The notes below the pieces were generated by a model. The model searched no databases, was not told the origin of the DNA, and was given only the letters and a program-made list of their open reading frames with translations. DNA of 56,483 nucleotides from positions 1 through 56,483 of the IMG/VR virus record IMGVR_UViG_3300034093_004958. One strand, given 5' to 3'. This stretch comes from a virus (Duplodnaviria; Caudoviricetes). This document shows positions 85 to 45,239 of the stretch, piece after piece. How positions within the stretch are numbered: position 1 is the first letter of the stretch; each line of letters opens with the position of its first letter. The translations under genes were made by a program, and so were the position numbers.

Positions 85-127
85 CATTCTCACATAAAAA
101 TATCTATTTAATTATAGTTATTTATTT
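85..127. repeat. 43-bp direct repeat, copy 1, flanking HNH gene
   Basis: cattctcacataaaaatatctatttaattatagttatttattt is identical at 85-127 and 700-742. Confidence 0.95.
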
Positions 128-639
128 TATTTTATTTCTACATGTTTCCAAAACTTTCTTCTTAAAATCCTGCTTACCTGCTGTTGACCAATCCCAAAAT
201 GATCCGCAATTCTTTGTTGAGTCCATTTTTCTATATTTCTTAAACGAAAGATTTCTATAACAATGGCTTCAGTTATTTTAGCACTTCCATTTTTTTCGCC
301 TTTAGCGTTTAACCCAAGTTTTTTAGCATGATCTATATTTTGTTTACATGTGCACCACTCAAGATTGCTAACATGATTATTTAATTTATTTCCGTCGATA
401 TGATTGACTTGTTTGTAATTATTTGGATTAGGTATAAAGCAAATAGCAACTAATCTATGTACAGAATATTTTTTTTCTGTACCATTAAACGATAAACCAA
501 CTCGCATATAACCCCTGGTATTATTAATACTAGGTATTTTTCGCTTTCTTTTGCCTGTACCACGATAATTAAAGCTATCAACATTTCCAAAATTAGAAAC
601 TTTATATCGCTCGCTAAAATCTTCCCAAAGTTCTTGCAT
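127..639 (-). CDS. NUMOD4-HNH homing endonuclease with C-terminal HTH
   Basis: W..F..RYKVSNFGNV (NUMOD4), VHRLVA..F..N....VNHIDGNKLNN...NLEW (HNH_3) and a C-terminal TQQRIADHFGIGQQQVSRI HTH. Confidence 0.92.
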   Translation of the reverse strand: MQELWEDFSERYKVSNFGNVDSFNYRGTGKRKRKIPSINNTRGYMRVGLSFNGTEKKYSVHRLVAICFIPNPNNYKQVNHIDGNKLNNHVSNLEWCTCKQNIDHAKKLGLNAKGEKNGSAKITEAIVIEIFRLRNIEKWTQQRIADHFGIGQQQVSRILRRKFWKHVEIK

Positions 640-2443: not shown

Positions 2444-2860
2444 TTATAAAAATTTGTTATGTTCGTATACTTTAGAAAAGTTTGATGTTTTAAAGCCATG
2501 TTTTGCATAAAATTTTAATGAGTTTTCAGTAGCATTAAGAAAAATCCATTTAATTCCAAATTCTTTAACGTGGGATTCGAAATAATTTAATATTTTACTT
2601 CCATAACCGTTGCCTTGTTTCGCTGGATCTGTTGCAATATACCACAACATACATCCATCGTACGATAGTCTTTCAGCCAGTAACACAGAAACTAAGATAC
2701 TTCCCTCTTCATACAATCCGAAAGCAAAACACTCAGTATCTGTTATAAAGTTCAGAGTACTACTTATGTCAGGATAAGTACCCTCAGATGATCTGAGCGA
2801 GTCTTGTTTTAAGATCGCAAGAAGATTGTCGATGTCTCCCAATTCCAATTGTTTAATCAT
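2444..2860 (-). CDS. GNAT family N-acetyltransferase
   Basis: Motif A (YIATDPAKQGNGYGSKIL) and motif B (LNATENSLKFYAKHGF). Confidence 0.9.
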   Translation of the reverse strand: MIKQLELGDIDNLLAILKQDSLRSSEGTYPDISSTLNFITDTECFAFGLYEEGSILVSVLLAERLSYDGCMLWYIATDPAKQGNGYGSKILNYFESHVKEFGIKWIFLNATENSLKFYAKHGFKTSNFSKVYEHNKFL

Positions 2861-6213: not shown

Positions 6214-6456
6214 TTACATTTTTTTTGTAGGATCAAATTCGTCATTAAGGTTTCCGCATTTTGTACAAATAGCTGTTTCAATAGGTATTAATACTTCTTC
6301 ACCATTTGGAGAAGCAATTGCTGAAAGTTTTTTAAACATTAATACTGGCTGAAAAAAGGTATTACCGCATTCCGCACACAATATATCAGTTGCAAGTGAA
6401 ATATCCAGTTGCATTTGTTGGTTTGGATTACCTTGTGAATTATTAGGTTTATTCAT
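6214..6456 (-). CDS. small zinc-ribbon protein
   Basis: CAECG...CTKCG. Confidence 0.7.
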   Translation of the reverse strand: MNKPNNSQGNPNQQMQLDISLATDILCAECGNTFFQPVLMFKKLSAIASPNGEEVLIPIETAICTKCGNLNDEFDPTKKM

Positions 6457-6472
6457 TTTTTTTCCTTGAAAA

Positions 6473-6778
6473 TTAAAAATTTATTAATCCGATCTTTGCA
6501 TATTTAATTAAAGTATCCACACCTTTCCCACGATATTCAGTACTCTTACAAGTAAAAAAACCAGTACCTGGATAAAATTCAATAGTACCTTTTATACCTT
6601 TGATAATAAAGAAGCTATCATTAAATTTTGATTCATATATTAAACCAGATTTCTTTATCTTAGAAACTGCGAAATCTCTGCCAGCATCCTTTGAAGGGTC
6701 TTGTGGTTTTCTTTTATTGATTCCTTCATAAACTGGTTCACCGAAGAAATAACCTACGTTTTGTTCTTTTCTTTGCAT
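6473..6778 (-). CDS. hypothetical protein
   Basis: 101-aa ORF containing IEFYPGTG. Confidence 0.6.
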   Translation of the reverse strand: MQRKEQNVGYFFGEPVYEGINKRKPQDPSKDAGRDFAVSKIKKSGLIYESKFNDSFFIIKGIKGTIEFYPGTGFFTCKSTEYRGKGVDTLIKYAKIGLINF

Positions 6779-6882
6779 GTTTCTTTAAAGTTAAATTATT
6801 TTAATTACGATATTCTTTTGATCTGAATTAATGAATTTTGTTGTTTTATGTTATAAAGGATAAACAAAAAAAGTTTAATTTT

Positions 6883-7314
6883 TTAATTTGATCTAAGATA
6901 ATCATATTCACAAGGTATCCATTTAATATATTCGAATAAATAATAAGATGCGATTGTATCATATTCAATTTTATCTATATCTATATTTAATTCTAAAGCA
7001 ATCTTATATCCCCTATCCCAAGCTTCAATCTCATCTTTCATTATTTGGAAAGATGCTATTTTATCAACAGGCTTATTTACACCAAGTTCATGTATCTTCC
7101 AATTTCGTTCTGAAAAAGAGTCATCGAATCTATTCATCATATGACCCAATTCATGTAATATTGAATATAACCAGGTCTTTGTGGGTTTGCTTCTCCATAC
7201 TTCTGTTATTAATCGTTCATTATGATCAAATGACCACATATTACTTTTAATAACTTCTATATTTTCTCTCATACAATAATAACGAATCAATGCATGTGAT
7301 CTTAAGATATCCAT
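6883..7314 (-). CDS. zincin-like metallopeptidase (HExxH)
   Basis: ILHELGH followed by EIEAW. Confidence 0.65.
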   Translation of the reverse strand: MDILRSHALIRYYCMRENIEVIKSNMWSFDHNERLITEVWRSKPTKTWLYSILHELGHMMNRFDDSFSERNWKIHELGVNKPVDKIASFQIMKDEIEAWDRGYKIALELNIDIDKIEYDTIASYYLFEYIKWIPCEYDYLRSN

Positions 7315-7391
7315 GTGAACTACCTAAACTGGATAGTAAAAGAAGTCTACCATAAGTAGACTTCTTAAACTTCAATGATTTTAAAAATATA

Positions 7392-8518: not shown

Positions 8519-9178
8519 TTAATTATTATCGAATAAATCTATCAATTCTGGATCTTTATTATCTTTTGCCAATTCCAATGGAGTTTTACCATCTTCATTT
8601 TTAATCATTGGGTCAGCTCCTGCATCTAATAAATATTTAATTGCCTCTGGGGATTTATAGTAGAATAATACAGCCCAATGTAAAGATGTATTTCCATTAT
8701 CAGACTGAATATTTGGATCTGCACCGTTTTTTAAAAGAAGTTTAATACCTTCATTATTATCTTGATGCAAAGTATACATTAAAGGCGTCCATGTCCAAGT
8801 GTTATCTTTTATATTAACTTCAGCACCTGCATCTATTAAAATTTTGAGGAATTCTGTGCTATTATAAATTCTACGATCTTTTGAAGCATAATGAATTGCT
8901 GTAAATCCCTTATTATCTTTTATATTAGGATTGACCCCAGCTTCTAATAGTATCTTACAAAAATTTATATTACCGAAACTTACAGAATAATTCAAAACCG
9001 TCCAACCATCGTCATCTTTCCAATCAAGTTCAGCACCCATAGTAATTAAAGTTTTTACTAGAGTTAAATTTGGTTTACCACTTGCAAGTTCATCGATAAT
9101 CATTTGAGTTTTCTTCTGAGGTGTAACCATCATAAGCTCATATGGATCAAAGTCTTCAAATAACTTAATATATTTCAT
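8519..9178 (-). CDS. ankyrin repeat protein with MKYIKLFEDF N-terminal tag
   Basis: About 5 ankyrin repeats (GWTVL, GFTAIH, TWTPLM, GNTSLH, GKTPLE). Confidence 0.9.
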   Translation of the reverse strand: MKYIKLFEDFDPYELMMVTPQKKTQMIIDELASGKPNLTLVKTLITMGAELDWKDDDGWTVLNYSVSFGNINFCKILLEAGVNPNIKDNKGFTAIHYASKDRRIYNSTEFLKILIDAGAEVNIKDNTWTWTPLMYTLHQDNNEGIKLLLKNGADPNIQSDNGNTSLHWAVLFYYKSPEAIKYLLDAGADPMIKNEDGKTPLELAKDNKDPELIDLFDNN

Positions 9179-9990
9179 CCTATTATTTCTTTATCTTTAA
9201 TAGTATATCCTTCTACTGAACCTACTTGAGTATAATCAAATCCTTGTAAAACAGCTATCTTCTGTTCTGGGAAAAATCCGTATTCCACAGCAAAACACGC
9301 TTGACCCACAACTTCTGTAAATAAAGCAGGTAAAGCTTCTGGTGGAGCTAATTTCGCATGATTATTATAAGAAGCAATTTCTCCTTTATCTCCGAATGGA
9401 TGATCACCTAAAATATGAACTATAAAATCATGCACACATCTAAATATAACATTATCAGCAACAGTAAAAATTGGATGATTTGAATAGTCAACACTTATCA
9501 TCAAGCTACCTGTGTTCTCCCATTGTTCTTTCATATCTTGTTGTGAGATATAAGGTTCACCCTCTGTCTTTTGGATTACAAATAGATTACCATCTAAATC
9601 TAAAGTAGTTCCTACTTGTGAATCTTCTTGAGATATTAATATAATTTGAGTTTTAGATAATAATCTTTTGAAAAGAATATGATTAGAAATATTTAAGGCT
9701 TTCCAATGTTTTACTGCTATTTCATCAAATAATGGTGAATCATTATATGCTTTTGCAACAAGTTTTCGGTAAGTCCCCCATTCTTTTAACAATAACTTCT
9801 CGGATATGTTATTTCCGTGTTTAGAATTATAATTTTCAATTACCCAAGATTCAAAACTTTTTATTTTCATACGTAATCTTTTTTTTCTTCCTGCACAATG
9901 CGCCCTTTGAGAAAATCCTTTAGGGTTTTTGCAATCTATGCTTCGTTTATACTTTTGTGACCATTTTTCAAATAACTCAAGATGAGGCAT
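9175..9990 (-). CDS. conserved phage protein; small Cys module fused to HDxxxH zincin-like domain
   Basis: WSQKYKRSIDCKNPKGFSQRAHC module, second tag MKIKSFESWVIE, then FRCVHDFIVH...GE...ALFTEVVGQ...FPEQK. Confidence 0.6.
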   Translation of the reverse strand: MPHLELFEKWSQKYKRSIDCKNPKGFSQRAHCAGRKKRLRMKIKSFESWVIENYNSKHGNNISEKLLLKEWGTYRKLVAKAYNDSPLFDEIAVKHWKALNISNHILFKRLLSKTQIILISQEDSQVGTTLDLDGNLFVIQKTEGEPYISQQDMKEQWENTGSLMISVDYSNHPIFTVADNVIFRCVHDFIVHILGDHPFGDKGEIASYNNHAKLAPPEALPALFTEVVGQACFAVEYGFFPEQKIAVLQGFDYTQVGSVEGYTIKDKEIIG

Positions 9991-10089
9991 CTTTTTTTAT
10001 TATTTTAGTAGTAAGTATATATCTAAACTGATCTTCATTAAGTAAAACATAGTTATATTAATAAAAATATTATAACATATAATCATTCA

Positions 10090-10126
10090 TAGTAAAATAG
10101 TCAGGTTAATCCTGACTATTTTACTA
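10090..10126. terminator. 16-bp perfect hairpin, probable terminator
   Basis: tagtaaaatagtcagg-ttaat-cctgactattttacta. Confidence 0.7.
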
Positions 10127-10138
10127 CAAAACATAATG

Positions 10139-10432
10139 TTATTGCAAATTGAGTTTTCTTAAAATCATAGACTGCGTCATATAAATTAGAGATACATATG
10201 CATCAGATTTATCTTTTAGATTACTAACTATGGTAAGTATATCATCAGAGTTTAAAACTCCACCCCTCTCTACATGTTGGGCTACATGATTAGGAAGAAT
10301 AGTAATCTTAGATGAATTTTCTACAGGAGTAAGAGATAGTTCAAACTTTTTATTTTCATTATCATCTTCAGTTATTATTAAATAAGCATTCATCGGTTTG
10401 ATATTATTCACCTGAAACTCCTTTTTGTTCAA
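10139..10432 (-). CDS. hypothetical protein
   Basis: ORF in a minus-strand run; start may be at 10393. Confidence 0.55.
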   Translation of the reverse strand: MNKKEFQVNNIKPMNAYLIITEDDNENKKFELSLTPVENSSKITILPNHVAQHVERGGVLNSDDILTIVSNLKDKSDAYVSLIYMTQSMILRKLNLQ

Positions 10433-10631
10433 TTAGCATTTTCATTGCTTTAACAACTTCTATTGCTTGATCATACTCAATGATGAACTCTTGATCATTA
10501 TTAATAGCAACATGAAAACTGGATTTGCTTCCAGAAAAAGAAACTACAACTCCATCATTAAGAGAAACAAAGTAATCTTGATCTTTTGGATGGATTGCGA
10601 TTCCAGTAATTGTCTTTTGATATTCTGCCAT
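10404..10631 (-). CDS. hypothetical protein
   Basis: 75-aa ORF with AAGGA RBS. Confidence 0.6.
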   Translation of the reverse strand: MAEYQKTITGIAIHPKDQDYFVSLNDGVVVSFSGSKSSFHVAINNDQEFIIEYDQAIEVVKAMKMLIEQKGVSGE

Positions 10632-10659
10632 ACTGATTCCTTAAATATAGTTATTAGAA

Positions 10660-10809
10660 TTAACTATACTTATATAACCTACATGCATATTTGTTTATCT
10701 TTTTCTTTTTATCTTCTACTGTTCTAGTTTTAAATCGTCCATCATAAGCTCCTGACTCTAGCATATTGAGGCGTTTAATTTTTAGATAAATATTTTCTCT
10801 CTTTTTCAT
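10660..10809 (-). CDS. small basic protein (49 aa, not in track), possibly ArfA-like
   Basis: MKKRENIYLKIKRLNMLESGAYDGRFKTRTVEDKKKKINKYACRLYKYS, with AAGGA RBS and a TAnnTTTG promoter upstream. Confidence 0.6.
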   Translation of the reverse strand: MKKRENIYLKIKRLNMLESGAYDGRFKTRTVEDKKKKINKYACRLYKYS

Positions 10810-10840
10810 AATAAAATTCCTTAATTGTTAATATCTAATA

Positions 10841-10931
10841 CAAACATAATAAATAATGTATTCTCAAACAAATTATTTAAAAAGATTAATAAAAATTATT
10901 TTGGATTATTTAGATTTGTTTATTAGTTTTG
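10841..10931. promoter_or_regulatory. divergent pair of Bacteroidota-type promoters
   Basis: Minus strand: TTTG(10872-10869)-N20-TATGTTTG(10848-10841). Plus strand: TTTG(10900-10903)-N20-TAGTTTTG(10924-10931). Confidence 0.6.
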
Positions 10932-10950
10932 AACTGTTATTAAAAATTTA

Positions 10951-11082
10951 ATGAAAAAAATGGTTAACAGAAAATTAGTTGAAATTATTAAAGTAAGTTT
11001 TATTCTGACAGCTTTTATGGTTGCAATGTATATCATTTTAGCAATAGCTTTAGTTATAGATCTAGACCTTATACCTAGATAA
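10951..11082 (+). CDS. small membrane protein (43 aa, not in track)
   Basis: MKKMVNRKLVEIIKVSFILTAFMVAMYIILAIALVIDLDLIPR, single TM helix. Confidence 0.5.
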   Translation: MKKMVNRKLVEIIKVSFILTAFMVAMYIILAIALVIDLDLIPR

Positions 11083-11117
11083 ATGTATTATTTTTATATA
11101 TTTTTTTGAGTTTTTTA

Positions 11118-12338
11118 ATGAATAGTAATCCGTATGTATGGACAAGTGAATATGTTTCACCAGGACATCCTGATAAGATAGCAGATCAAATTTCAGATGC
11201 TATACTTGATGCATACCTAAATATTGATCATAATGCAAAAGTTGCATGTGAGACCTTAGTTAAAGGTAATAATGTTTATATAGCTGGCGAAATTTCTTCG
11301 CATACACAAATAGGAAATAGTTCTTTAGAGTCCATTGTTAGAAAAACAATTTCAAATATAGGATATGATTCTAATGAACATATATTTAATAGTAATTCAT
11401 GCTCTATAATTTTTGATATTTCAAAACAATCTCCAGAGATTAATGGAGCAGTTGTTTCTGATAATGGAGATATTGTTGCAGGTGATCAAGGTATTATGTT
11501 TGGATATGCAACAAATGAAACACCAACAAAAATGCCTCTTCCAATTTATTTAGCAAAACAATTTATTATGGAAGCATATGAAGGTATTGATAATAAGTAT
11601 GCTTTTAGACCTGATATGAAAAGTCAAGTATCTATAAATTTTGAACATGGTAGAGCAAAAAGCATACATTCAGTAGTTTTTTCTACCTGTCATACTGAAG
11701 AATTATCTTTAAAAGATGTACGAGATCTTTTTCACGCTATGGTTCTACCTAATGTTTTAGAAAGTTTTCCTGAACATATTCAAGAATTATTTGATGATAC
11801 TACTAAATATTTTATTAACCCTGCTGGAGCTTGGAATATCGGAGGACCAGTTTCTGATTCAGGATTAACAGGTAGAAAAATTGTAGTAGATCAATATGGA
11901 GCAGACTGTGAAATTGGCGGTGGAGCTTTCTCAGGAAAAGATCCTAGTAAAGTTGACAGAAGTGGAGCATATATGGCTCGACATATTGCTTTAACTACTC
12001 TTAAAAATCACCCTGAAGCAGATAAGATTAAAGTTCAATTGGCATATGCTATTGGTGAAAAATATCCAGTTTCATATAGAATATACAATCCAGTTACTGG
12101 TCAAGAATATGGTCTTGAAGATTTTACTTTAGAAGATTTAACTCCTAATTCTATTATTGAAACTTTAGGATTAAAAAATCCTATCTATGCAAAAACAGCT
12201 AAGTATGGTCATTTCGGTAATGAGTCTTATATTAAAAATGGCATTGAGTATTTTAAATGGGAAAACAATTTATACAAACCTAATATCGAACATTTGATAT
12301 ATAACAAAAAATCTATGCATCATAGTGAAACATTTTAA
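11118..12338 (+). CDS. metK: S-adenosylmethionine synthetase
   Basis: SEYVSPGHPDK, AGDQGIMFG, PDMKSQV, DSGLTGRKIVVDQYG, GGGAFSGKDPSKVDRSGAY, YGHFG. Confidence 0.97.
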   Translation: MNSNPYVWTSEYVSPGHPDKIADQISDAILDAYLNIDHNAKVACETLVKGNNVYIAGEISSHTQIGNSSLESIVRKTISNIGYDSNEHIFNSNSCSIIFDISKQSPEINGAVVSDNGDIVAGDQGIMFGYATNETPTKMPLPIYLAKQFIMEAYEGIDNKYAFRPDMKSQVSINFEHGRAKSIHSVVFSTCHTEELSLKDVRDLFHAMVLPNVLESFPEHIQELFDDTTKYFINPAGAWNIGGPVSDSGLTGRKIVVDQYGADCEIGGGAFSGKDPSKVDRSGAYMARHIALTTLKNHPEADKIKVQLAYAIGEKYPVSYRIYNPVTGQEYGLEDFTLEDLTPNSIIETLGLKNPIYAKTAKYGHFGNESYIKNGIEYFKWENNLYKPNIEHLIYNKKSMHHSETF

Positions 12339-12858
12339 ACTATATGAACATTATCATAATAATGTAGAGCATTTACAATATGACATTACTCTAGAAAACG
12401 AAGTTCAGTTATATCATTATACTAAATTAGATTTGGGCAATGAAGTTATTCTTTCTCCAGAGGAAAGTAAAAATAAAAGATTGTCATGGTCAATGAGAGA
12501 GTATAAACGCTCAGATATTCCTCGTGTATTTTACTATGTTAATGTAAAAAAAACTGAACGAAGTATAGTTGAAAATAGTAATTTTTTATATACTGGTTTT
12601 GTAAATGGTAAAGATATTATAAAGGTTTCAAATGCGATCCGATCTTATAACAAGAACCCACAAGAATTTGAAAAATTAAATCCAAATGCTTATAATTCTG
12701 TAAAAGAATTTGTTGATAAAGGAAGTTCAAATTATAATATACTTTTTGAAAATCTAAAGCATTTTTTTAAGGGTGCATATTACAAATTTGAAAATGAAAT
12801 GGAAGTTGTAATTCTCTTTCAATCATTAAAAGTGTTTCAAATAGATTATATACAATAA
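12325..12858 (+). CDS. putative ADP-ribosyltransferase-fold protein with packaging-like tag
   Basis: Tag MKHFKLYEH; LYHYT strand 1, RVFYY and C-terminal KGAYY...EVVILFQSLKV resemble the ART-PolyVal layout. Confidence 0.45.
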   Translation: MKHFKLYEHYHNNVEHLQYDITLENEVQLYHYTKLDLGNEVILSPEESKNKRLSWSMREYKRSDIPRVFYYVNVKKTERSIVENSNFLYTGFVNGKDIIKVSNAIRSYNKNPQEFEKLNPNAYNSVKEFVDKGSSNYNILFENLKHFFKGAYYKFENEMEVVILFQSLKVFQIDYIQ

Positions 12859-12871
12859 AACAAACAATATT

Positions 12872-13462
12872 ATGAAAAGAAATGGTTTTTTAAATTTATT
12901 AAGAGTCACATTTAAAGATTTTATACATGGAAAAAAAATGTACGAAGAAATAGTTCCTCGTAATTATTTTCATGCTTTACAAATGAATAGTTTCTCTATT
13001 GATAAAAGTAATGATCCTTCAGCTGAAACTCTTTATTTTGATTTTCCAGAAGATTTTGAATTAACTGAAACGAGCATTGAATATTTTGAAAATAAAGGTG
13101 GGATTATCGTTTTCTCTACTGAAATAAATGCTGTTTCCTTAAGTAAAAGAAAACTTATTAATTACATTTATTCTAAAATTCAGTCTATAAAAAATTCAAT
13201 GTTTGTAAATAAAAAGATTGAAACTATATTTAGAAAACATGAATCTCTTAAAGGTGTTGGGATGACTGTTGGAAGTTTTGTTAATGGAAAATACGTAGCA
13301 GATGACGGAACCATATATACTGAAAAATCTATTTCAGTTGAAATCATTGGAGTTCCAACATCTGTTTTAAATGAAGTTGCTGATAGTATCAGAAAGGAAT
13401 TTAATCAAGAGGCTGTACTGGTTAGAAATTACGAAGAGAATTTAATATACTTAGTTAAATAA
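12872..13462 (+). CDS. SAM lyase (T3 SAMase/PII-like fold)-like protein
   Basis: GKYVADDGTIYTEKSISV...ADSIRKEFNQEAVLV aligns by eye with T3 SAMase GCY...TEEKTVRV...ACNEWEQDCVLV (recalled sequence). Confidence 0.55.
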   Translation: MKRNGFLNLLRVTFKDFIHGKKMYEEIVPRNYFHALQMNSFSIDKSNDPSAETLYFDFPEDFELTETSIEYFENKGGIIVFSTEINAVSLSKRKLINYIYSKIQSIKNSMFVNKKIETIFRKHESLKGVGMTVGSFVNGKYVADDGTIYTEKSISVEIIGVPTSVLNEVADSIRKEFNQEAVLVRNYEENLIYLVK

Positions 13463-13483
13463 GTATTACATTAATTAAACTAT

Positions 13484-14575
13484 ATGAAGCATATCAAGTT
13501 ATTTGAATATTGGATACATGAAGAAAACAAAGAGCTAACTTTAACAGGAGATTATCAGTCTAAAAAATTTATTACCAATTTTTATGAAATGATTCGGTAT
13601 TGGAATATACCTTTGCCAGGTTCAATCTCTCAAGATGCTTTTAAAGTTGCTATAGAATTTCTTGATGATTTAAAAGTAAGAGGACAAGCCATAGAAACAC
13701 AAATAAAAGCTATGGCAAGTAAAACTGAGAATAAAGGAAAAACTTTAGCTCAAATTCTTAAAGATACTCCAGATGAAAATAAAGAAGATATGTTCAGGTA
13801 TTATGTAAATTTTTATTCTAATAATATAACCTGCTATAAGTTTTATGCATTTATGTGGAAAGGAACAAACCCTCAAGCTCAGATTATTATTAATAATTTG
13901 AAAAAAAATATAGAAGATATAAGCCACGATACAAAAGTACCAACTAGTGCATATATTTCATTTTTATTTAATAGCCCATTTTTTAATACTAAACGAAGAA
14001 TAGTTCCATATACTGATTCTAATGTAGATGCAGGTGCACAAGAGTTTAGAAATATTATGATATCAGGTATTGGTTTATTTTGCATTATAATGTTTTTTTG
14101 TGGATTGGCTACTGATTCTTTAGATTATTATAAAACAAATAAAGAAAAATCTCAAGTAATTAGAGAGTCATATATTTTTCTTATGAATATGCATAAAAGA
14201 GGATGGTATGATATTACTGGAGATTTAAATATAATTGAAGATCCAAAAGTAGAAGATAGTAATAGCTCTAAAACTTTATATCCAGAGGATTGGCTTTATA
14301 ATTTATTTACATCTGATAACGAAAAGAATAATGAAACATTTAGATCCGAATATTTTGAATCATTAAGAGATTATTCTATAAATTATTATAAAACTGCTCA
14401 ACTCGATGTTGTAACAAAATATCTTATGGATTTACATTTTATTACACATAGTGACATTCATGAGTTTATAAAAGCAGGAAGTTCTATTGTCCCATCTTTA
14501 GCATCTAACTCGATCCAGTCCAATATTATAACTGGAGAAATTTTGGTTGATAAAATTTCGAAAATTCCGACCTAA
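13484..14575 (+). CDS. hypothetical protein with MKHIKLFEYWIHE tag
   Basis: 363-aa ORF with one hydrophobic segment. Confidence 0.7.
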   Translation: MKHIKLFEYWIHEENKELTLTGDYQSKKFITNFYEMIRYWNIPLPGSISQDAFKVAIEFLDDLKVRGQAIETQIKAMASKTENKGKTLAQILKDTPDENKEDMFRYYVNFYSNNITCYKFYAFMWKGTNPQAQIIINNLKKNIEDISHDTKVPTSAYISFLFNSPFFNTKRRIVPYTDSNVDAGAQEFRNIMISGIGLFCIIMFFCGLATDSLDYYKTNKEKSQVIRESYIFLMNMHKRGWYDITGDLNIIEDPKVEDSNSSKTLYPEDWLYNLFTSDNEKNNETFRSEYFESLRDYSINYYKTAQLDVVTKYLMDLHFITHSDIHEFIKAGSSIVPSLASNSIQSNIITGEILVDKISKIPT

Positions 14576-14616
14576 CACATATTTTTTTAATTAACTTTAG
14601 ATTTAAGAATTAGTTT

Positions 14617-14904
14617 ATGAATGTTTATGTAGCTATTGGAGAAAATATTTTTAAAGATTCAGGAAAATGTATTAATGAAAAAACATTAGGAGTTTTTAAA
14701 AATCAAAGAGCAGCTGAATATTTTATTTTAGATTTCCACGAAAAACTTTGTTTAACCAATAAAAAGAAATACAGAAAGTCAGAAAATACTATGATAAATG
14801 GAGATGTTTGTTTTTCATTGTCATTTGAAACTGAAACCAATATATTTAGCTTTACAGTAAGAGAATTCGAGTTCAACGAAAGAAAGATTAAAAATTCTTA
14901 TTAA
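14617..14904 (+). CDS. hypothetical protein
   Basis: 95-aa ORF. Confidence 0.55.
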   Translation: MNVYVAIGENIFKDSGKCINEKTLGVFKNQRAAEYFILDFHEKLCLTNKKKYRKSENTMINGDVCFSLSFETETNIFSFTVREFEFNERKIKNSY

Positions 14905-14982
14905 ACAAAATAATACGATATTAAATTTGTATTTTATCTTATGAAATTTATTGTATTTGTATTAACTTTAGGGAATTGATTC

Positions 14983-15243
14983 ATGACAAGTAAAACCGAT
15001 TGCGATTGTCTTTTAGGATTTATATCAGGTGATAAAATCTATAGAAGCAATTTAGATTTCGAGCTTGAAAGAACTACAACTGTTCAATCACAGTTTTATG
15101 ATATGGGATTATTGAAAGGTAAACCTTTAAAAGCTAAAGATATTCTTGATAATAGAAGGGGATATATTTCTAGGTTTACTTATTGTCCTTATTGTGGAGA
15201 AAAATTTAATTGGAAAAATATAATAAATAACTATATTGAATAA
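14983..15243 (+). CDS. small Zn-binding protein
   Basis: CDC...FTYCPYCGEKF. Confidence 0.65.
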   Translation: MTSKTDCDCLLGFISGDKIYRSNLDFELERTTTVQSQFYDMGLLKGKPLKAKDILDNRRGYISRFTYCPYCGEKFNWKNIINNYIE

Positions 15244-15276
15244 AAACCCCAAGCATGAAGATGATTGGGGTTTTTT
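15243..15276. terminator. bidirectional intrinsic terminator
   Basis: aaaaacccca...tggggtttttt between convergent genes. Confidence 0.7.
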
Positions 15277-15281
15277 AATTT

Positions 15282-16919
15282 TTAGTTATTATTTTCTTTT
15301 AACCATGTTTCATAATTATCAAAATATGATTCTTTCATTAATTTAGTTTTAATTTTAGAAGCATGTCTTTTTAAAGATTTAAAATCTTTTTTTGGAAGTT
15401 TGACTACTTTTTGTGGAACTATTTTTTCAGTCACTACTATTTCAGGTGCTTGTAAATCTATATTTGTTTTTGACTTAGCTAATAAATTAAGAGTATTGTT
15501 AAATTTTTTAGATAAATTTTCTATTGGTGACGTAACTGATTGAATCGAAGGTTTGATAGAAGATGTAAATTTTGACATAGCATCCGAAATCGGTTTTCCT
15601 AAAGATGATACCGCACCCGATAACATACCCATCGTACCCCCTTTTTTTCCTTCTTCTTCACAAGACTTTACAAAGTCTCCTACCTGATTAGGTATTTTAA
15701 AAGCTGTATCTATACCATTTTGAATCGTACCAACTGATTTCAAAACAGTATCTTTCATATCAGAAGGAATTAAATATTCTAATGCTACTGTACCACCTAA
15801 AGAAATTAAGTGCGGTTGTAAATCTTTTACTAAAGATTCTGGTTTAATTCCATCTTTACCTTTTATTCCAGCCATTGATAAAAGTGTACTTCCCAAACCA
15901 CTAGCATTTTCTTTACTAAAAAAAGATTGACCTTGTGTTTTTAATGAATCATCTGACTTATCAAATAATGATGTTATATCAGTGATACCTGATAAGACAT
16001 CTGGAGATGGATTTATTACTCCTATAATATCTTTAGCTCCTAATATTAAAGAATTTGATCCTGCCAAAATATTAGGCCCATGTTTTGTCAAAGCAGTTCC
16101 AACATCCAAAGCTGATTTTGCTGAACCTATTGTAGATTTTAAATCTGAAATTGGATCCTTAATTTTAGTATATCCATCATATAACCCTAATAATCCAGTT
16201 GCTCCACCTACAATTGTAGACATAAGTTGTCCAGTTCCTGGTGCAAAAACTTGACCAACTGTTCCATAAATACCTCTAAATAAAGTGGATATTGTTTGAA
16301 CTTGTTTAATCCAATCGTCTCCTACAAAGACTGCTACTGAATCGTAACAAGTTCCTATAAATCCCACAACTGATTTAGCAGCGTCCCCTAAACTATTTGC
16401 CCATCCTCCTACTGTATCGACAACTGAATTAACAGCATCCCCTATAATTTTACCTGCACCTGAGAATACATCTCCTATAACATCAAAAATTCCTTCGTTT
16501 AAAGAATTGCTCATTAATATATTATAGGATTCTTTAGAAATAGCAAAAGATCTGTCATTATAAAAAATAAATGTATGAGTTTTTGATTCAAAAAGTATAG
16601 GAGTTTTATTTGATTTTGAAGATTCATTAAACCATTCTTCTCTATGTGTATAGAATAGTTGAGTTTCATATAATGCAAAAATTTTATTTTTTGAATATTC
16701 ATCTTCACTTTCATTAAGAAAAGGAAATGCTTCATTAATAAATTCATCTCTTGAAATAGCTGATGTAAAACTATGTTCATCTAATCTATTTAAATTAGGT
16801 CTATCCAAAATTTCCCAACTTTCAGATATATCATATTTACTTTGAGATATAGTATAGTCTGTTTCATGCTCATTACCCTGTTCTTCTAGTTTCGCCCAAT
16901 CATTAAATTTTTTTATCAT
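15282..16919 (-). CDS. Gly/Ala/Ser-rich helical protein, putative virion/ejection protein
   Basis: Tag MIKKFNDWAKLEE; several (I/L)NE sites; amphipathic Gly-rich core; C-terminal FDNYETWLKE. Confidence 0.6.
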   Translation of the reverse strand: MIKKFNDWAKLEEQGNEHETDYTISQSKYDISESWEILDRPNLNRLDEHSFTSAISRDEFINEAFPFLNESEDEYSKNKIFALYETQLFYTHREEWFNESSKSNKTPILFESKTHTFIFYNDRSFAISKESYNILMSNSLNEGIFDVIGDVFSGAGKIIGDAVNSVVDTVGGWANSLGDAAKSVVGFIGTCYDSVAVFVGDDWIKQVQTISTLFRGIYGTVGQVFAPGTGQLMSTIVGGATGLLGLYDGYTKIKDPISDLKSTIGSAKSALDVGTALTKHGPNILAGSNSLILGAKDIIGVINPSPDVLSGITDITSLFDKSDDSLKTQGQSFFSKENASGLGSTLLSMAGIKGKDGIKPESLVKDLQPHLISLGGTVALEYLIPSDMKDTVLKSVGTIQNGIDTAFKIPNQVGDFVKSCEEEGKKGGTMGMLSGAVSSLGKPISDAMSKFTSSIKPSIQSVTSPIENLSKKFNNTLNLLAKSKTNIDLQAPEIVVTEKIVPQKVVKLPKKDFKSLKRHASKIKTKLMKESYFDNYETWLKENNN

Positions 16920-17068
16920 ACTAATTTGTTTTTTTTTCTGTTATTTTAATTAGTCCATTTTATTCTTTTGAACTTAATTCCTATATATTTATATATTTAA
17001 AAAAATTTAATTAATTTAATGTTTAAATTTGTTAGAAATAAATAAAGCTATTAATATACGATACTAAA

Positions 17069-35592: not shown

Positions 35593-36666
35593 TTAGTATT
35601 TAAGATTTATTGCATGTGGATTACTTTCTTGTAAAGAATTACTTGAAACTTCTACATACACAGAAGTCTCATATAAATTACTGAGACGTTCTACTCCTGA
35701 ATAAGAGCATCCGCTTCCTACACCACCTATAATATTTTGTAAGAACTCAGCTACCTTACCTTTATAAGGAACCGTAGTTGATATACCTTCAGATACAGAG
35801 ACTCCACCTAACCAATCCTGTTGAGCTTCTTTTGAAGCCATGCCTCTAAATTCTTTTATAGGTCTGCCTAACGTATCATATATAATATTGCCTGGAGATT
35901 CATCATATCCAGAAAGTAATGACCCTAACATAACAGCATTTGCACCAGAAGCGAATGATTTGACCATATCACCTGTGTTTCGAATACCTCCATCTGCAAT
36001 TATACTATAAATTCCTGATTTAAAGAATTCTGTATTTCTTTCTTTACAATCTATTATAGAATATAATGTAGGCATACCATGACCAGAAACAATCCTAGTA
36101 GTACATGCACTGCCTCCACCTATACCGACTCGTACTGAATCTGCACCTGATATAAGCAAATTGGAAAATGAAAGATGTGTTGAAACATTTCCACACATAA
36201 TATGTATATCGTTTGGTACTATACTTCTTAGATATTTAACAGCATCAATGGCTCGTTTAGCCTGACCATTTGCTGTATCTATACATAAAACTTTTACTCC
36301 AGTTTCTAAAATATTATGAACTATTACTTTGTCATTTGCTTCTAACAAAGAAATAGCAACACCCTTTAAACCTTCTACTTTGTTTAAATGCTCTATTCTT
36401 TTTTCAATATTCATAAATCTATGGATTATTCCTAAACCTCCGTATGTAGAAAGTAAAGAAGCCATTTCCCACTCACATACTGTATCCATAGGAGAAGCAA
36501 TTATAGGTAATTTTAAATCTAGCATGGCTAAATAATTTTCCTCGTTTCCTAACTTCATAGATAAATCAACAGAATATCTACTTTTTACTTCTGAATTATG
36601 TTTTGGGATAAGTAAAATATCATCAAAACAAAGAGCTTTTTCAATAAATGGACTATATTTTTTCAT
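35593..36666 (-). CDS. IMP dehydrogenase / GMP reductase family protein lacking CBS domains
   Basis: FDDILLIP, ASPMDTV, GGLGIIHR, IDTANG, RVGIGGGSACTTR (catalytic Cys), ADGGI, FRGMAS, SEG. Confidence 0.92.
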   Translation of the reverse strand: MKKYSPFIEKALCFDDILLIPKHNSEVKSRYSVDLSMKLGNEENYLAMLDLKLPIIASPMDTVCEWEMASLLSTYGGLGIIHRFMNIEKRIEHLNKVEGLKGVAISLLEANDKVIVHNILETGVKVLCIDTANGQAKRAIDAVKYLRSIVPNDIHIMCGNVSTHLSFSNLLISGADSVRVGIGGGSACTTRIVSGHGMPTLYSIIDCKERNTEFFKSGIYSIIADGGIRNTGDMVKSFASGANAVMLGSLLSGYDESPGNIIYDTLGRPIKEFRGMASKEAQQDWLGGVSVSEGISTTVPYKGKVAEFLQNIIGGVGSGCSYSGVERLSNLYETSVYVEVSSNSLQESNPHAINLKY

Positions 36667-38402: not shown

Positions 38403-39389
38403 ATGAATAAAAAGACTTTGAAAATTGGTATATTTTATGACGGTAATTTTATTAACCATGTTTCTGATTTTTATGTATATAGACATGCAATACATAGCCG
38501 TCTTTATTTAAAAGGATTACAAGATTTTGCTGTAAAATTAATTGCTAAGAAAGAAGATATAAATGTAGAGTTTTGTAAAATTGTTGATTCTCATATTTAT
38601 AAAGGTAGATTTACAGCAAAGTCAGCAGATGAAAGAGATGTATTATATGGTGAAAGAGTTTTTGATGATGCTTGTATGTATGATGGTATTACTACACATT
38701 ATATTCCGATAAAAAAACAACGTGGGAAGATGATTGAAAAGGGAACTGATGTTTGGCTTGCTTTAGATGCATATGAAGCTGCACTACAAAAGAATTTAGA
38801 TATAGTTGTTATAGTAACAAGTGATACAGATTTTAAGCCTCTTATAAGAAAATTGCATTCGTTAGGTGCTAAAACTATGCTTTTAAGTTGGAATCTTGAA
38901 TGGGAGCAGGAAGGAGAAATTCAGGTTACTAAAACATCTCGTGATTTAACAGAAGAAGTAACATGGTTTATAGATGTTGCAAAAGAATTTTTAAATAATT
39001 CTGAAGAGTTAAAATCTATATTTGTACAAAAAAACGATAAAGAACAAAAAGAAGGTTATCAAACAAGTAACTATAAAACTAAATATTTAAAATATAAATC
39101 TTACGATACCAAAGATAGTGATTTATCAAATCAAGTTCCAGATGTTGAGTTCGATCCTGAACAAAGAGTAGAATCAGAAATACAAAGTATCAAAAATGGT
39201 TATGGATTTATTTTATATCCAGAACATAACATTTTCTTCCATGCTAAAGATATTATTAATTGTAATTTTGAAGATTTAGAAATAGGTGATGCTGTAGAAT
39301 TTCAAATCTATTGTAAACCTAATGGAGAAATGGTAGCTAAACAGATTAGTTTATTATTTGCTTCTGATGAAGATTCAACACAATATTAA
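38403..39389 (+). CDS. NYN (LabA/DUF88) domain protein with C-terminal cold-shock domain
   Basis: IFYDGN, EKGTDVWLALD, TSDTDF; GYGFI...IFFH...GD.VEF. Confidence 0.88.
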   Translation: MNKKTLKIGIFYDGNFINHVSDFYVYRHAIHSRLYLKGLQDFAVKLIAKKEDINVEFCKIVDSHIYKGRFTAKSADERDVLYGERVFDDACMYDGITTHYIPIKKQRGKMIEKGTDVWLALDAYEAALQKNLDIVVIVTSDTDFKPLIRKLHSLGAKTMLLSWNLEWEQEGEIQVTKTSRDLTEEVTWFIDVAKEFLNNSEELKSIFVQKNDKEQKEGYQTSNYKTKYLKYKSYDTKDSDLSNQVPDVEFDPEQRVESEIQSIKNGYGFILYPEHNIFFHAKDIINCNFEDLEIGDAVEFQIYCKPNGEMVAKQISLLFASDEDSTQY

Positions 39390-40149: not shown

Positions 40150-40578
40150 ATGATACATTTAGAAAATAATTCAAACATATATCTCAATTTAGGAGTAGTA
40201 GGAAGTCGAACATTTATAGATAGAGACTTAATATTCGCATGGCTATGTAGAGTTAATAAGGATTTAGGCCCATTCGATAAAATTATTACTGGTGATTCAC
40301 AGGGTGCAGATTTAATAGCTGAGTCATGGGCAAAAGACAAAAATATAGAAACCAAAATATGCTATGCTGATTGGACTACATTAGGAACAAAAGCAAGCTT
40401 TTTAAGAAATATTTCAATTATAGATAATTCAGATTTTGTTATAGCATTTTGGGATGGAGATTCTAAAGGTACTGCTCATGCTATAAGAGTTACTCGAATG
40501 GAAAATAAACCTTTATTGGTAATTTCAAAAAATGGTTCTAATTATGAATTATTATCTACTATTAGATTTTTAGATTAA
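40150..40578 (+). CDS. SLOG/YspA-like (DUF2493) protein
   Basis: VVGSR, ITGD..GAD..AE.WA, RN..I....D.VIAFWDG.SKGT. Confidence 0.85.
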   Translation: MIHLENNSNIYLNLGVVGSRTFIDRDLIFAWLCRVNKDLGPFDKIITGDSQGADLIAESWAKDKNIETKICYADWTTLGTKASFLRNISIIDNSDFVIAFWDGDSKGTAHAIRVTRMENKPLLVISKNGSNYELLSTIRFLD

Positions 40579-40590
40579 TTTTTAAATTAT

Positions 40591-41019
40591 ATGAATGATA
40601 CAAGACCAAGTTGGGAAGAATACTTTTTAGATATAGCCGAAAAAGTTTCAACAAGATCTACTTGTTTGCGATTAAAAGTTGGATGTGTTCTCGTAGCCGA
40701 AGATAATAAAATATTATCTACTGGATATAATGGGTCTCCAAAAGGTATGCCTCATTGTTTAGATGAAGGATGCTTAAAGAATGAAGAAGGAAGATGTATT
40801 AGGACCGTTCATGCTGAAATAAATGCTATTTTATCTGTAGATTCACATTTAAGAAGAAATAGTACTTTATTTTGTACACATGAACCATGTGAGCATTGTA
40901 CCAAATCTATAATACAAGCTGGCATCATAAAGGTAGTATATGAACATCCTTACCCTAATATAGTTAATAAGTTTTTTAGTACATATATCAAGTGGATACA
41001 CTATAAAAAAAGGAGCTAA
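40591..41019 (+). CDS. dCMP deaminase (ComEB family)
   Basis: RSTC.R..VG, GYNG, HAEINA, PCEHC. Confidence 0.93.
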   Translation: MNDTRPSWEEYFLDIAEKVSTRSTCLRLKVGCVLVAEDNKILSTGYNGSPKGMPHCLDEGCLKNEEGRCIRTVHAEINAILSVDSHLRRNSTLFCTHEPCEHCTKSIIQAGIIKVVYEHPYPNIVNKFFSTYIKWIHYKKRS

Positions 41020-41038: not shown

Positions 41039-43522
41039 TTATGCTTCTATTTCTAAGTTAGTATTATAAGTGAAGATCAGTTTATCAAGTTTTTTATCAA
41101 CTTTTATTTTCACTTCAGAACCATCTTTAATTAAGCCAGACAGTAATTCTTCAGATAATGGATCTTCTAGATATTTTTGAATGCTTCTTCGTAATGGACG
41201 TGCACCATATTTTTCATCAAATCCTTTATCTACTAAAAACTCCTTACATGTTTTAGAAATATTTAACGTTATATGTTTATCAGATAAACGACTTTCTAAT
41301 TTTTGGAGTTGAATATTTAAGATACTTATCATATCTTCTTTTTTTAACTTTTTAAAATAAACAATACCATCAAGACGATTGATGAATTCTGGAGAGAACA
41401 TAGTTTTTATAGCTGAATCTATTGTTTCTATAATATGCGATTCATCACTAGTATCTTTATTAATAGAAAAACCTAAACTTCCACCAGCTTTAATATCTCT
41501 TTGTCCAATATTAGATGTCATTATTAGTATTGTGTTTCTAAAATCTACTTTTCTTCCTAATCCATCAGTAAGATGACCATCATCAAATACTTGAAGTAAT
41601 GTATTTAAAGCATCTGGATGTGCCTTTTCTACTTCATCTAATAAAACTACGCTAAAAGGTTTTCTTCGAACTTTTTCAGTTAATTGACCACCTTCTTCGT
41701 AACCTATATAGCCTGGAGGAGCTCCAATTAATTTACTTACAGAAAATTTTTCCATATATTCAGACATGTCTACTCTAATTAAAGAATTTTCACTATCAAA
41801 TAAATGTTTAGCTAATGTTTTAGCAAGCTCTGTTTTACCTACACCAGTTGGACCAGTAAATAGAAATACTCCAGTTGGTCTAGAAGGATCTTTAAGACCT
41901 GATCTTGATCTTCTGATTGATTTTGCTAAAATATCTATCGCTTCATTTTGACCTATAACGTATTTCTTTAATTCATTATTAATGTTCATAAGTTTTTTTG
42001 CTTCATCTTCAGATACCTTTGTAACAGGAATACCAGTCATTATAGAAATTACTTTTGCTACATCTTCCTCAGTTACAATTTGTTGATTATCATCTAAAGA
42101 TTTTTCCCATGAAAATTTTATTGCTTCTAAATCTACCTGTATATTCCTTTCTCTATCACGAAGTTTAGCAGCTTCTTCAAAATTTTGATTTCTTATAGCC
42201 TGATTTTTTTCAATACTAATTTCACCTAATTCTTGTTCTAATGACAAAATTTCTTTTGGCACTTCGATATTTGATAATCTAACTCTAGCCCCAGATTCAT
42301 CTAGTACATCAAATGCTTTATCTGGAAAGAATCTATCAGTAATATATCGTTCAGATAATTTTACACAAGCTTTGATAGCATCGTCAGTGTATTTTACACC
42401 ATGATGCTTTTCATATTTATCTTTCACATTAGTAATAATTTCTAATGTTTCTTCTCTAGTAGGAGCTTCTATAATTATTTTTTGAAATCTTCTATCTAAA
42501 GCACCATCCTTTTCAATATGTTCTCTATATTCATTGAGTGTTGATGCACCAATACATTGAATCTCACCTCTAGCTAAAGCTGGTTTTAACATATTAGCAG
42601 CATCTAAAGAACCAGAAGCACCACCAGCACCAACAAGAGTATGTAATTCATCAATAAATAATATTATATCTTCATTTTTTTCAAGTTCTTGAACAACAGA
42701 CTTCATACGTTCTTCAAATTGTCCTCTATATTTAGTCCCTGCAACCATTGATCCCAAGTCTAAAGAAATAACACGTTTGTTCATTAAAGCTCTTGGAACT
42801 TTTCTTTCAATTATTTTTAAAGCTAAACCTTCAACTATTGCTGTTTTACCAACACCAGGTTCACCTATTAAAACAGGGTTATTCTTTTTTCTTCTTGCAA
42901 TAACTTGTACAACTCTTTCAATCTCATTAATTCTACCAATTACTGGATCTAATTTTCCTTCTGCCGCTAACTTTGTTAAATCTCTTCCAAAATTATCTAA
43001 AACTGGAGTTTTGGTTTTAGTTGTAGTATTAGGTTTAGGTTTTTTTAATGCAGATCTGTTTATGGTTGAAGATAATGTTTCATCATCATTGTTAATGTAT
43101 AAATCTAATTCTTTTCTAAATGTATCATAATTTATATCTTGAGCGTGCAAAGATTTGGAAGCTTCATTCTCCTCATCTCTCAAAATAGATAGTATTAAAT
43201 GTTCACTTCCTATTTTCTCAGATTTGTACAATTTAGATTCTAAATAAGTTACCTTTAATACTTTTTCAGCTGTTTTTGAAACAGATAAATTTGTCGTTTG
43301 GATTGAAACTTTACTTGTATCTAATTCTTTAACAATTGATTTTTGTAATTGTTTTAAATCTGTATTAAGAGATTTTAGTACTTCAATTCCTATACCTTCA
43401 TTACGTTTTAAAACACCTAATAGTAGATGTCCTATCTGAATGGTATCATGTCCTAATCTCATTGCTTCTTCTCTTGAATTTCTAATGACTTCTTGAAGTC
43501 CTTCCGAGAAATTTGCTTCCAT
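41039..43522 (-). CDS. clpC: ATP-dependent Clp protease ATP-binding subunit ClpC
   Basis: Clp-N repeats, two AAA+ modules ([16 protein letters not shown]), UVR coiled coil (FEEAAKLRD), ClpP-docking LGF loop. Confidence 0.95.
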
Positions 43523-43598: not shown

Positions 43599-44177
43599 CT
43601 ATAGAATTTTATCTATGATACCATAATTTAATGCTTCCTCAGAAGACATCCAATTGTCTCTGTCTGCATCTTTCATAATTTTTTCAACACTCTGACCTGT
43701 ATGCTTTGAAATTACACTATATAAACTTTCTCGAATTTTAATCATTTCTCTTGTATAAATTTCTATATCTGATGCTTGACCTTGTGTACCACCTAAAGGC
43801 TGATGCATCATAACTCTTGAATGTGGCAAGGCATATCTTTTCCCCTTTGCTCCTGCGGTCAAAATCACTTGACCCATAGAAGCTGCCATACCAACACATA
43901 TCGTCGATACATCAGGCTTTATGTATTGCATAGTATCATATATAGCCATACCTGCACTAACACTGCCTCCTGGTGAATTTACATAAAGATGTATGTCTTT
44001 ATTAGGATCTTCAGACTGTAAAAATAAAAGTTGGGCTATAATTATGGAAGAAGCATAATCATCAATACCACTACCCAAATAAATAATTCGATCTTTTAAT
44101 AATCTTGAGAAGATATCATATGATCGTTCTCCTCGTGAACTTTGTTCAATTACGTAAGGAATTAAATGAGATTTCAT
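43599..44177 (-). CDS. clpP: ATP-dependent Clp protease proteolytic subunit
   Basis: [27 protein letters not shown]-like VNSPGG, AASMG (Ser), MMHQP (His), DRD; ATG at 44177 preferred. Confidence 0.97.
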
Positions 44178-44331
44178 ATTTTCTTTTAAAAATGAATAAT
44201 CAACTTTAGTTATAACCTTTTTATTATAAAATTGCAATTAGTTCAAACTAATAAGAAAATGTTTTAATTAATCAATTATGATATATCGTATACATAATAA
44301 AAAATATATAGGTTAAATTTAACTTTGTAAC

Positions 44332-45173: not shown

Positions 45174-45239
45174 CAAATTTATTTTTTATTATCATTTTAT
45201 TTATTATATTTGTATTAACATAATTTTAAAGGTAATAAA

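Follow-up and report, generated by a model that had tools for sequence, protein, structure and literature searches.

The virus record IMGVR_UViG_3300034093_004958 of IMG/VR (Duplodnaviria; Caudoviricetes), analysed here over its whole length of 56,483 bp (hereafter the window), carries a gene for S-adenosylmethionine (SAM) synthetase, metK, followed by two open reading frames (ORFs), of which the second, ORF3, encodes a predicted divergent relative of the SAM lyases. SAM lyases are phage weapons against restriction and BREX, SAM-AMP lyases act against type III CRISPR, and phage MetK is a recognised metabolic helper gene. What is new here is that a relative of the SAM lyases belongs to a MetK module that recurs, together with a new partner domain, that of ORF2. 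The explanation that we favour, and to which we give somewhat better than even chances, is that ORF3 works as a trimer that cleaves SAM or a SAM conjugate and serves in anti-defence within a functionally linked MetK/ORF2 module. For this locus, homology, fold, residue conservation, a trimer model, recurrent linkage, and domain fusion are supported in silico; catalysis, the substrate, an anti-defence role, and a temporal separation of making and breaking SAM are what we infer.

The metK gene and its neighbours

The window is a fragment of a large AT-rich phage, with a G+C content of 23-33% and a CheckV completeness of about 29%. Its metK product scores 391.4 bits against the TIGR01034 equivalog model, whose cut-off is 309.4, contains the three Pfam MetK domains (PF00438, PF02772, and PF02773, with E-values from 4e-31 to 1e-42), and matches phrog_1569 (E 3e-101). 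By these profile matches it is a genuine methionine adenosyltransferase. A previous sequence-only reading of this stretch had described the gene as intact, which the TIGR01034 score and the three domains confirm, and had placed three ORFs of the same strand where we also find them. A second possible start of metK, the TTG at 11106, would give a protein of 410 residues. metK, ORF2, and ORF3 lie head-to-tail, all on the + strand, and ORF2 overlaps metK by 14 nt (Table 1).

ORF3 as a predicted relative of SAM lyases

The only Pfam match of ORF3 is PF23780 (S-AdoMet_lyase), at 19.6 bits (E 9.3e-4), with 21.3 bits in the scan of its own genome. A search of 5.8 billion proteins gave 107 candidates, 36 of them relatives of ORF3. 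PF23780 was precomputed for 2 of the 36 listed homologs, and it is matched at E <= 0.1 by 19 of the 31 aligned sequences (ORF3 and 30 relatives), with a best E of 6.8e-6. The profile of this family, compared with 177,635 PDB sequences, has the lyase Svi3-3 (6zm9) as its best match (E 0.016). Furthermore, when the family core is compared by hhalign with eight canonical PF23780 domains, the probability is 86.9% and the E 4.2e-6 over 58 columns, with the same motifs. A tblastn search with ORF3 gave no match among 50,697 phage records.

The motifs that the sequence-only reading had pointed out are present in ORF3: IIVFS at residues 78-82, GKY at 139-141, and, after eight residues, TEKSISV at 150-156. 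The Gln-containing stretch is there as well, in EFNQEAVLV (N178, Q179, and E180; motif at 178-184). The profile alignment places G139, Y141, E151, S153, Q179, and E180 of ORF3 on G56, Y58, E69, S71, Q104, and E105 of Svi3-3, and none of these six ligand-equivalent positions varies among ORF3 and its 15 closest relatives. According to the passages of Guo et al. (PMC7877911) on the ligand site of Svi3-3, Gly56, Glu69, and Gln104 contact the ligand, Ser71 touches the ribose, and Tyr58 packs on the gamma carbon and bonds Glu105; the change E69Q nearly abolishes activity. The relatives that match PF23780, the matches to Svi3-3, and the kept ligand residues bear out the lyase-like character that had been proposed for ORF3.

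The structure model of ORF3 (AlphaFold2, AF2) has an overall predicted local distance difference test score (pLDDT) of 68.9 and a predicted template modelling score (pTM) of 0.65, with a pLDDT of 81-90 over residues 131-196. The top Foldseek match of the model is again Svi3-3 (6zm9, E 0.027, probability 0.94). VIA-align, run against 48,161 chains, also places 6zm9_A first (Z 7.6, root mean square deviation 4.0, 105 of 129 residues aligned), followed by the Clostridium botulinum SAM-AMP lyase (9gab_D, Z 6.1) and then by unrelated ferredoxin-like folds (Z <= 5.6). Another SAM-AMP lyase structure, 9gad, comes seventh in Foldseek, where it has the best TM-score by target (0.50). The fold predicted for ORF3 is therefore ferredoxin/PII-like, with moderate scores, as the sequence-only reading had expected of a lyase relative.

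A three-copy model of residues 70-196 reached interface scores (ipSAE) of 0.67, 0.67, and 0.50, the best of three controls being at 0.00, and its runs agreed in at least 90% of contacts, with a partner pLDDT of at least 75. Among proteins of solved structure, the ipSAE mark is reached by 20 of 30 pairs of one chain and by 1 of 23 single chains. The modelled interface takes in residues 135-153, including G139, Y141, and S153, i.e. part of the putative ligand site.

The N-terminal module of ORF3 is modelled with low to moderate pLDDT. A sister subfamily (P0021-P0035) with an overall identity of only 25-32% retains residues 1-46 of the module at 57-66% identity; it lacks the Gln-Glu motif, and most of its members have Gln in place of Glu151. 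Several of its gene calls extend upstream into a shared peptide, which by eye resembles read-through of a neighbouring tRNA gene. All 21 matches of the first 46 residues are lyase-like proteins, so that the tag-like TFKDFI noted in the sequence-only reading is not a tag shared with other proteins.

Each of these lines of evidence is weak to moderate, but they all converge, and we take ORF3 to be a divergent member of the SAM-lyase (PII-like) superfamily, with a predicted intact ligand site and an extra N-terminal module of 70 residues.

Recurrence of metK beside lyase-like genes

We collected 98 loci centred on relatives of the lyase-like gene, 18 viral and 80 from metagenomes, with at least 8 contigs present in both sets. 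The linkage with metK, which the sequence-only reading had put forward, recurs among these relatives. In 11 of the 98 loci (L014, L031, L033, L045, L076, L079, L080, L081, L083, L084, and L087) a MetK gene lies on the same strand as the lyase-like gene, 289-1,360 bp from it, and in another (L085) the distance is 6.8 kb. Of the 49 loci whose flanks reach 1.5 kb or more in both directions, 6 have MetK within 1.5 kb. Besides the window, the linked loci represent at least 6 lineages, as judged by a lyase identity of at most 50% between groups, and the MetKs of these lineages are 29-55% identical to one another. Gene order is not fixed, with metK first in some lineages and the lyase first in others. 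For example, one locus (L084) has the order lyase-like gene, PF23780 lyase, ORF2-family gene, and metK, and another (L045) has DNA methylase, metK, lyase-like gene, and PF23780 lyase. The remaining 87 of the 98 loci have no MetK next to the lyase-like gene. We also assembled a MetK-centred set, which consists of the best 80 of at least 598 matching stretches in 2.9 million IMG/VR contigs. Since MetK is rare in phage contigs and yet occurs near the lyase in at least 6 lineages, the pairing is recurrent and far above chance for a rare gene. It is neither obligatory nor a trait of the MetK clade to which the window belongs.

Some of these loci carry tandem arrays of three to six paralogs with the lyase fold. 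L033 holds five or more in addition to its window-type gene, and L055 and L059 have three apiece. The arrays (L033 1302-6434, L055 5109-8378, and L059 1691-4531) mix canonical PF23780-like genes with genes of the window type. The array of L033 comes directly after metK, and several neighbours there share a lineage-specific N-terminal peptide.

The junction of the three genes is also found in close variants. A contig from a marine metatranscriptome spans the 3' end of metK, ORF2, and the start of ORF3 (11921-12989), with 47 differences in 1,069 bases (about 95.6% identity), and a second falls inside ORF3. Such RNA-library contigs, 90-99% alike, cover most of 9000-17000, and the parts left uncovered carry no meaning. 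As an RNA library can hold DNA, these contigs show the junction in a variant strain, and not transcription, strand, ends, or timing. One of them skips 333 bases at 14910-15244, with two other letters in between. This strain indel removes a small ORF (14983-15243, 86 residues, with a weak zinc-finger match).

ORF2, a partner of MetK that is also fused to lyase domains

ORF2 has 16 close homologs, and a HMMER scan of 1.84 billion representative proteins gave 103 relatives at E <= 0.001. Residues H31, P45, R67, Y71, E78, G150, and Y153 are near-invariant in this family. An ORF of the ORF2 family (E <= 1e-12) is present in 24 of the best 80 MetK loci. In 23 of them, the loci with the most similar MetK (L102-L124), it comes immediately after metK, and in the other (L130) it is upstream of metK. 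Hence, the constant partner of the window's MetK clade is ORF2 and not the lyase, a point that the sequence-only reading had overlooked.

The ORF2 family is also tied to the lyases themselves. In three of the loci described above (L080, L084, and L087) the ORF between the lyase-like gene and metK belongs to the ORF2 family, as detected with a broader hidden Markov model (HMM; E 3e-8 to 3e-9), so that an independent lineage has the full triad too, with its order reversed. Moreover, four representatives have an ORF2-like N-terminal domain followed by PF23780, all above the cut-off of that family (P0092 with 56.8 bits, P0104 with 44.3, P0132 with 58.4, and P0139 with 56.7), and one (P0117) has PF23780 (29.4 bits) and the ORF2-like domain in the reverse order. 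These fusions, likewise missed before, amount to 5 of the 103 representatives and occur in both orders. Other architectures combine the ORF2-like domain with NUDIX (P0112) or place it in a protein of 2,881 residues with the polyvalent-protein domain LPD38 (P0148).

We found no match of ORF2 in Pfam, NCBIfam, or the PDB (PDB profiles, E <= 10), and 55 of its relatives gave only scattered single matches in Pfam. Its AF2 model is too poor for any use of the fold (pLDDT 47.3). A hidden lyase fold was ruled out, as hhalign against the lyase alignments gave probabilities of 0.1-0.2%. The sequence-only reading had called ORF2 similar to ADP-ribosyltransferases (ARTs), which the HMMs do not back: the ART families have no match in ORF2 (E <= 1) or in the 55 relatives (E <= 0.1), and the two sub-threshold matches of PF18760 in 15 related virus records are both on genes other than the ORF2 homologs. 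What points to an ART is similarity of language-model features, which reaches 0.90-0.91 with clusters where 23-29% of the members have ART-PolyVal (PF18760); the matching clusters include one where 81% of the members have the AcrIF11 ADP-ribosyltransferase domain (PF26151), and 7 of the 10 best named matches agree with the best one. We treat this similarity as a lead. A search of the full-text literature, with subscription journals and supplements outside its coverage, found no description of the MetK-lyase pairing or of the ORF2 family.

A promoter-like box in the 3' end of metK

The sequence GATATATA occurs 19 times in the window, for 8.3 +/- 2.9 expected copies, a number reached in 1 of 100 shuffles, and the enriched form is (T/A)GATATATA. 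Thirteen of the 19 copies sit 14-55 nt upstream of ORF starts, which suggests that the box is probably a promoter element of the phage. The copy that the sequence-only reading had seen at 12296, in the 3' end of metK, is real, although it lies 29 nt before ORF2 and not directly before the lyase-like gene. It may be a promoter, possibly a late one, that drives ORF2 and ORF3 separately from metK. Among the other genes preceded by the box are one for a head-tail adaptor-like protein (48024) and one for a baseplate protein (53234), which hints that ORF2 and ORF3 are late genes.

Proposed role and alternative explanations

In the explanation that we favour, the metK product would make SAM, and the ORF2 protein would be coupled to MetK, as suggested by the overlap of the two genes and by the maintenance of the pair in the MetK clade. 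The subunit interface of the ORF3 trimer would hold SAM or a SAM conjugate, bound by G139, Y141, E151, S153, Q179, and E180, and the enzyme would cleave it by the mechanism of Svi3-3, giving methylthioadenosine (MTA), or MTA-AMP, and homoserine lactone. The lyase would in this way disarm host defences that depend on SAM (type I/III restriction, BREX, or SAM-AMP signalling), and the phage MetK and ORF2 together would secure the SAM that the phage itself needs.

Several points weigh against this explanation. A synthetase and a lyase packed co-directionally imply a futile cycle if both act on SAM simultaneously. The PF23780 scores of ORF3 are below the gathering cut-off of 28 bits (which is a curation threshold and not a biological feature), and the margin of Svi3-3 in the PDB profile search is thin, with lactate dehydrogenase coming next at E 0.034. 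Foldseek gave nothing for the ORF3 model at E <= 0.001, and a VIA-align Z of 7-8 is the typical best score of models without a clear match. The trimer score was calibrated on two copies and not on three, and its pass may reflect the memory of the solved Svi3-3 trimer. Regarding linkage, MetK is missing from 15 of 17 viral records that carry a lyase relative, one of them being rated 100% complete, and a search of the 80 MetK-centred loci, in which the closest MetK relatives are included, found no lyase-family ORF (E <= 0.1) within 5 kb. Finally, we did not find the methyltransferase that the sequence-only reading had placed at the window start. That region holds an HNH endonuclease and a GNAT acetyltransferase, and the search for a DNA methyltransferase in the window as a whole was negative, with no match to PF01555, PF00145, or PF02086.

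The futile cycle would be avoided if ORF3 acted on SAM-AMP only. It may be specific for SAM-AMP or another SAM conjugate, thus countering type III CRISPR like the candidate AcrIIIB4 and not opposing MetK, which we regard as a serious option even if an unlikely one. A passage of PMC12255297 describes the candidate phage AcrIIIB4 as cleaving SAM-AMP, not SAM, and as having an extra N-terminal domain, as ORF3 does. The position of SAM-AMP lyase as the second-best fold match of ORF3 (by the 9gab score and the Foldseek rank of 9gad) fits this idea, and so do the 2 to 6 tandem lyase-fold paralogs of related loci, which suggest differing specificities. However, Svi3-3 outranks SAM-AMP lyase in the sequence profile and in both fold searches, and the ORF3-family profile does not reach the C. 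botulinum SAM-AMP lyase even at E <= 10. ORF3 also keeps the equivalents of the Gly-x-Tyr, Ser71, and Glu105 of Svi3-3, whereas Glu and Gln are the only residues given as structurally common to SAM lyase and SAM-AMP lyase in the relevant passage of PMC12255297.

A more doubtful idea concerns the ORF2 family. It could be a new enzyme domain devoted to SAM chemistry, whose coupling to MetK and fusion to lyase domains would come from the three jointly making and then processing a small molecule derived from SAM, which could be a counter-signal, a decoy for immunity of the SAM-AMP type, or a donor for DNA or protein modification. If this were true, the three genes would not be independent effectors, and the tandem lyase arrays would reflect a family of SAM conjugates yet to be described.

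It is quite improbable, in our view, that ORF3 is a non-catalytic PII-like binder of SAM or MetK, one that would act as a sensor or sponge or would regulate or inhibit the MetK of host or phage. There is a precedent in the SAMase of phage T3, which binds the host MetK and inactivates it by filament formation, according to a passage of PMC8406200. The recurring adjacency of the lyase-like gene and MetK fits such a binder. The sister subfamily P0021-P0035, keeps the first 46 residues but mostly has Gln for Glu151 and lacks the Gln-Glu motif, so that binding-only members plausibly exist. However, neither ORF3 nor any of its 15 closest relatives departs from Glu151, Gln179, and Glu180, the pattern expected for catalysis. 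Least probable of all is a coincidental clustering of three unrelated accessory genes in a variable region, which would suit the nearest MetK relatives without lyase and the 87 lyase loci without MetK nearby, but not a MetK so rare in phage contigs that nevertheless stands within 1.4 kb of the lyase in 11 of the 98 loci and at least 6 lineages, nor the fusion of ORF2-family domains to SAM-lyase domains in both orders.

If ORF3 is an active lyase, as we favour, the recurrent module would mean that the SAM pool is under two-way control by large phages. The ORF2 domain would then be a testable handle on how the futile cycle is avoided, be it by substrate specificity, by timing, or by packaging. 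The ORF2 family, with its more than 100 representative proteins without annotation, gains a name and a context, and the arrays of tandem lyase paralogs are flagged as likely anti-defence islands.

Other features of the window

The coordinates of the features are given in Table 1.

Table 1. Positions of the metK locus and of other annotated features in the window
Feature	Position	Strand	Remark
metK, S-adenosylmethionine synthetase	11118-12338	+	406 aa from ATG
GATATATA promoter-like box	12296-12303	+	inside metK 3' end, 29 nt before ORF2 start
ORF2, 177 aa, uncharacterised family	12325-12858	+	GTG start
ORF3, whole	12872-13462	+	SAM-lyase-like protein
ORF3 N-terminal module, residues 1-70	12872-13081	+	no counterpart in Svi3-3
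ORF3 SAM-lyase-like core, residues 71-196	13082-13462	+	PF23780 and Svi3-3 matches
ORF3 G139 codon	13286-13288	+	putative ligand residue
ORF3 Y141 codon	13292-13294	+	putative ligand residue
ORF3 E151 codon	13322-13324	+	putative ligand residue
ORF3 S153 codon	13328-13330	+	putative ligand residue
ORF3 Q179 codon	13406-13408	+	putative ligand residue
ORF3 E180 codon	13409-13411	+	putative ligand residue
HNH endonuclease ORF	127-639		window start
GNAT acetyltransferase ORF	2444-2860		window start
GATATATA, example sites	18188, 33165, 36732, 47991, 48770, 53220	+	
GATATATA, example sites	10023, 28163, 33141, 43577	-	

A leader of the form M-K-x-I-K-L-F-E-x-F/W/Y begins ORF2 and about a dozen otherwise unrelated ORFs of the window, with starts at 5475(-), 9178(-), 9990(-), 12325(+), 13484(+), 16919(-), 18221(+), 26642(-), 28128(-), 32132(+), and 37047(+). 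Its carriers include, besides ORF2, an ankyrin-repeat protein, two NAGPA phosphodiester glycosidases, one of them with a peptidoglycan-binding domain, and several large proteins without known function. The leader ends in L-x-E, which may recall a signal for the prohead protease or for capsid targeting, and a T4-like targeting of the capsid is a conceivable role for this KLFE leader.

A tmRNA gene was predicted by ARAGORN at 44785-45174 (+), with a tag peptide of 24 residues that ends in AIAA. A ClpB/ClpC-like double AAA+ chaperone (41039-43522, -) adjoins a ClpP protease (43599-44237, -). Near the Clp genes are an IMP dehydrogenase (IMPDH)/GMP reductase (35593-36666), a dCMP deaminase (40591-41019), a protein with NYN and cold-shock domains (38403-39389), and a SLOG-family protein (40150-40578). 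The domain DUF3293 (PF11697) has no match in the window.

Comparison with known systems

The closest known system is Svi3-3 (PDB 6ZM9/6ZMG/6ZNB), which is the best profile and fold match of ORF3 and whose six ligand residues are all kept. Both have a ferredoxin/PII-like core and a trimer with ligand residues at the interface, the ORF3 trimer being an in silico model. The two differ in sequence, with about 19% identity over 105 aligned residues and an ORF3 that stays below the Pfam cut-off, and in architecture, since ORF3 adds the N-terminal module of 70 residues and has a first helix that is much longer. Unlike Svi3-3, ORF3 is encoded next to a phage MetK, and its activity is a prediction.

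The SAM-AMP lyases, of which the C. botulinum enzyme is encoded with CRISPR (9GAB/9GAD), share with ORF3 the superfamily, the fold (at the Z given above), the catalytic Glu, and the Gln of the B-loop, features that do not separate SAM lyases from SAM-AMP lyases. They rank below Svi3-3 in every search made with ORF3. The contacts specific to SAM-AMP are W64, C66, F84, T110, T112, and Y122 (PMC12255297), and among these W64, F84, T110, T112, and Y122 touch the AMP moiety. The profile of the canonical-lyase alignment matched no lyase in the PDB.

Intact phage MetKs comparable to that of the window are known from Ca. Heliusvirales, where MetK is reported as an auxiliary metabolic gene in 58.9% of the genomes (section of PMC11283538 on this gene). 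The same section places it beside a cytosine-5 methyltransferase and mentions no lyase or ORF2-family partner. A closer parallel is the cultured Microcystis phage Mel-JY01 (PP395634), which has a MetK 50% identical to that of the window, an ORF2 homolog with 33% identity (WWT39369, annotated as 'hypothetical protein'), and the same 14-nt overlap between them. It differs in having no lyase-family ORF within 6 kb of the pair, which stands in a block of replication and nucleotide metabolism genes (PolB, clamp loader, PD-(D/E)XK nuclease, and GuaB). After the ORF2 homolog, the gene at 80461-81378 of Mel-JY01 (6450-7367 of our locus L185), for another 'hypothetical protein', encodes a stretch F-A-G-I-G-G that by eye resembles motif I of cytosine-5 DNA methyltransferases.

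The SAMase of T3 (gp0.3) goes under the same Pfam family name, PF23780, and ORF3 was compared with it through PF23780 and Svi3-3 as stand-ins. T3 SAMase acts against restriction and BREX by depleting SAM, and the literature that joins SAM lyase, phage, and MetK concerns the MetK of the host, as far as the relevant parts of 10.1101/2023.02.27.530186 and PMC8406200 go. T3 has no MetK of its own and inhibits that of its host, whereas the phage of the window encodes MetK. In a T3 infection the SAMase is made before any other protein, whereas the ORF3 gene follows a box that it has in common with structural genes.

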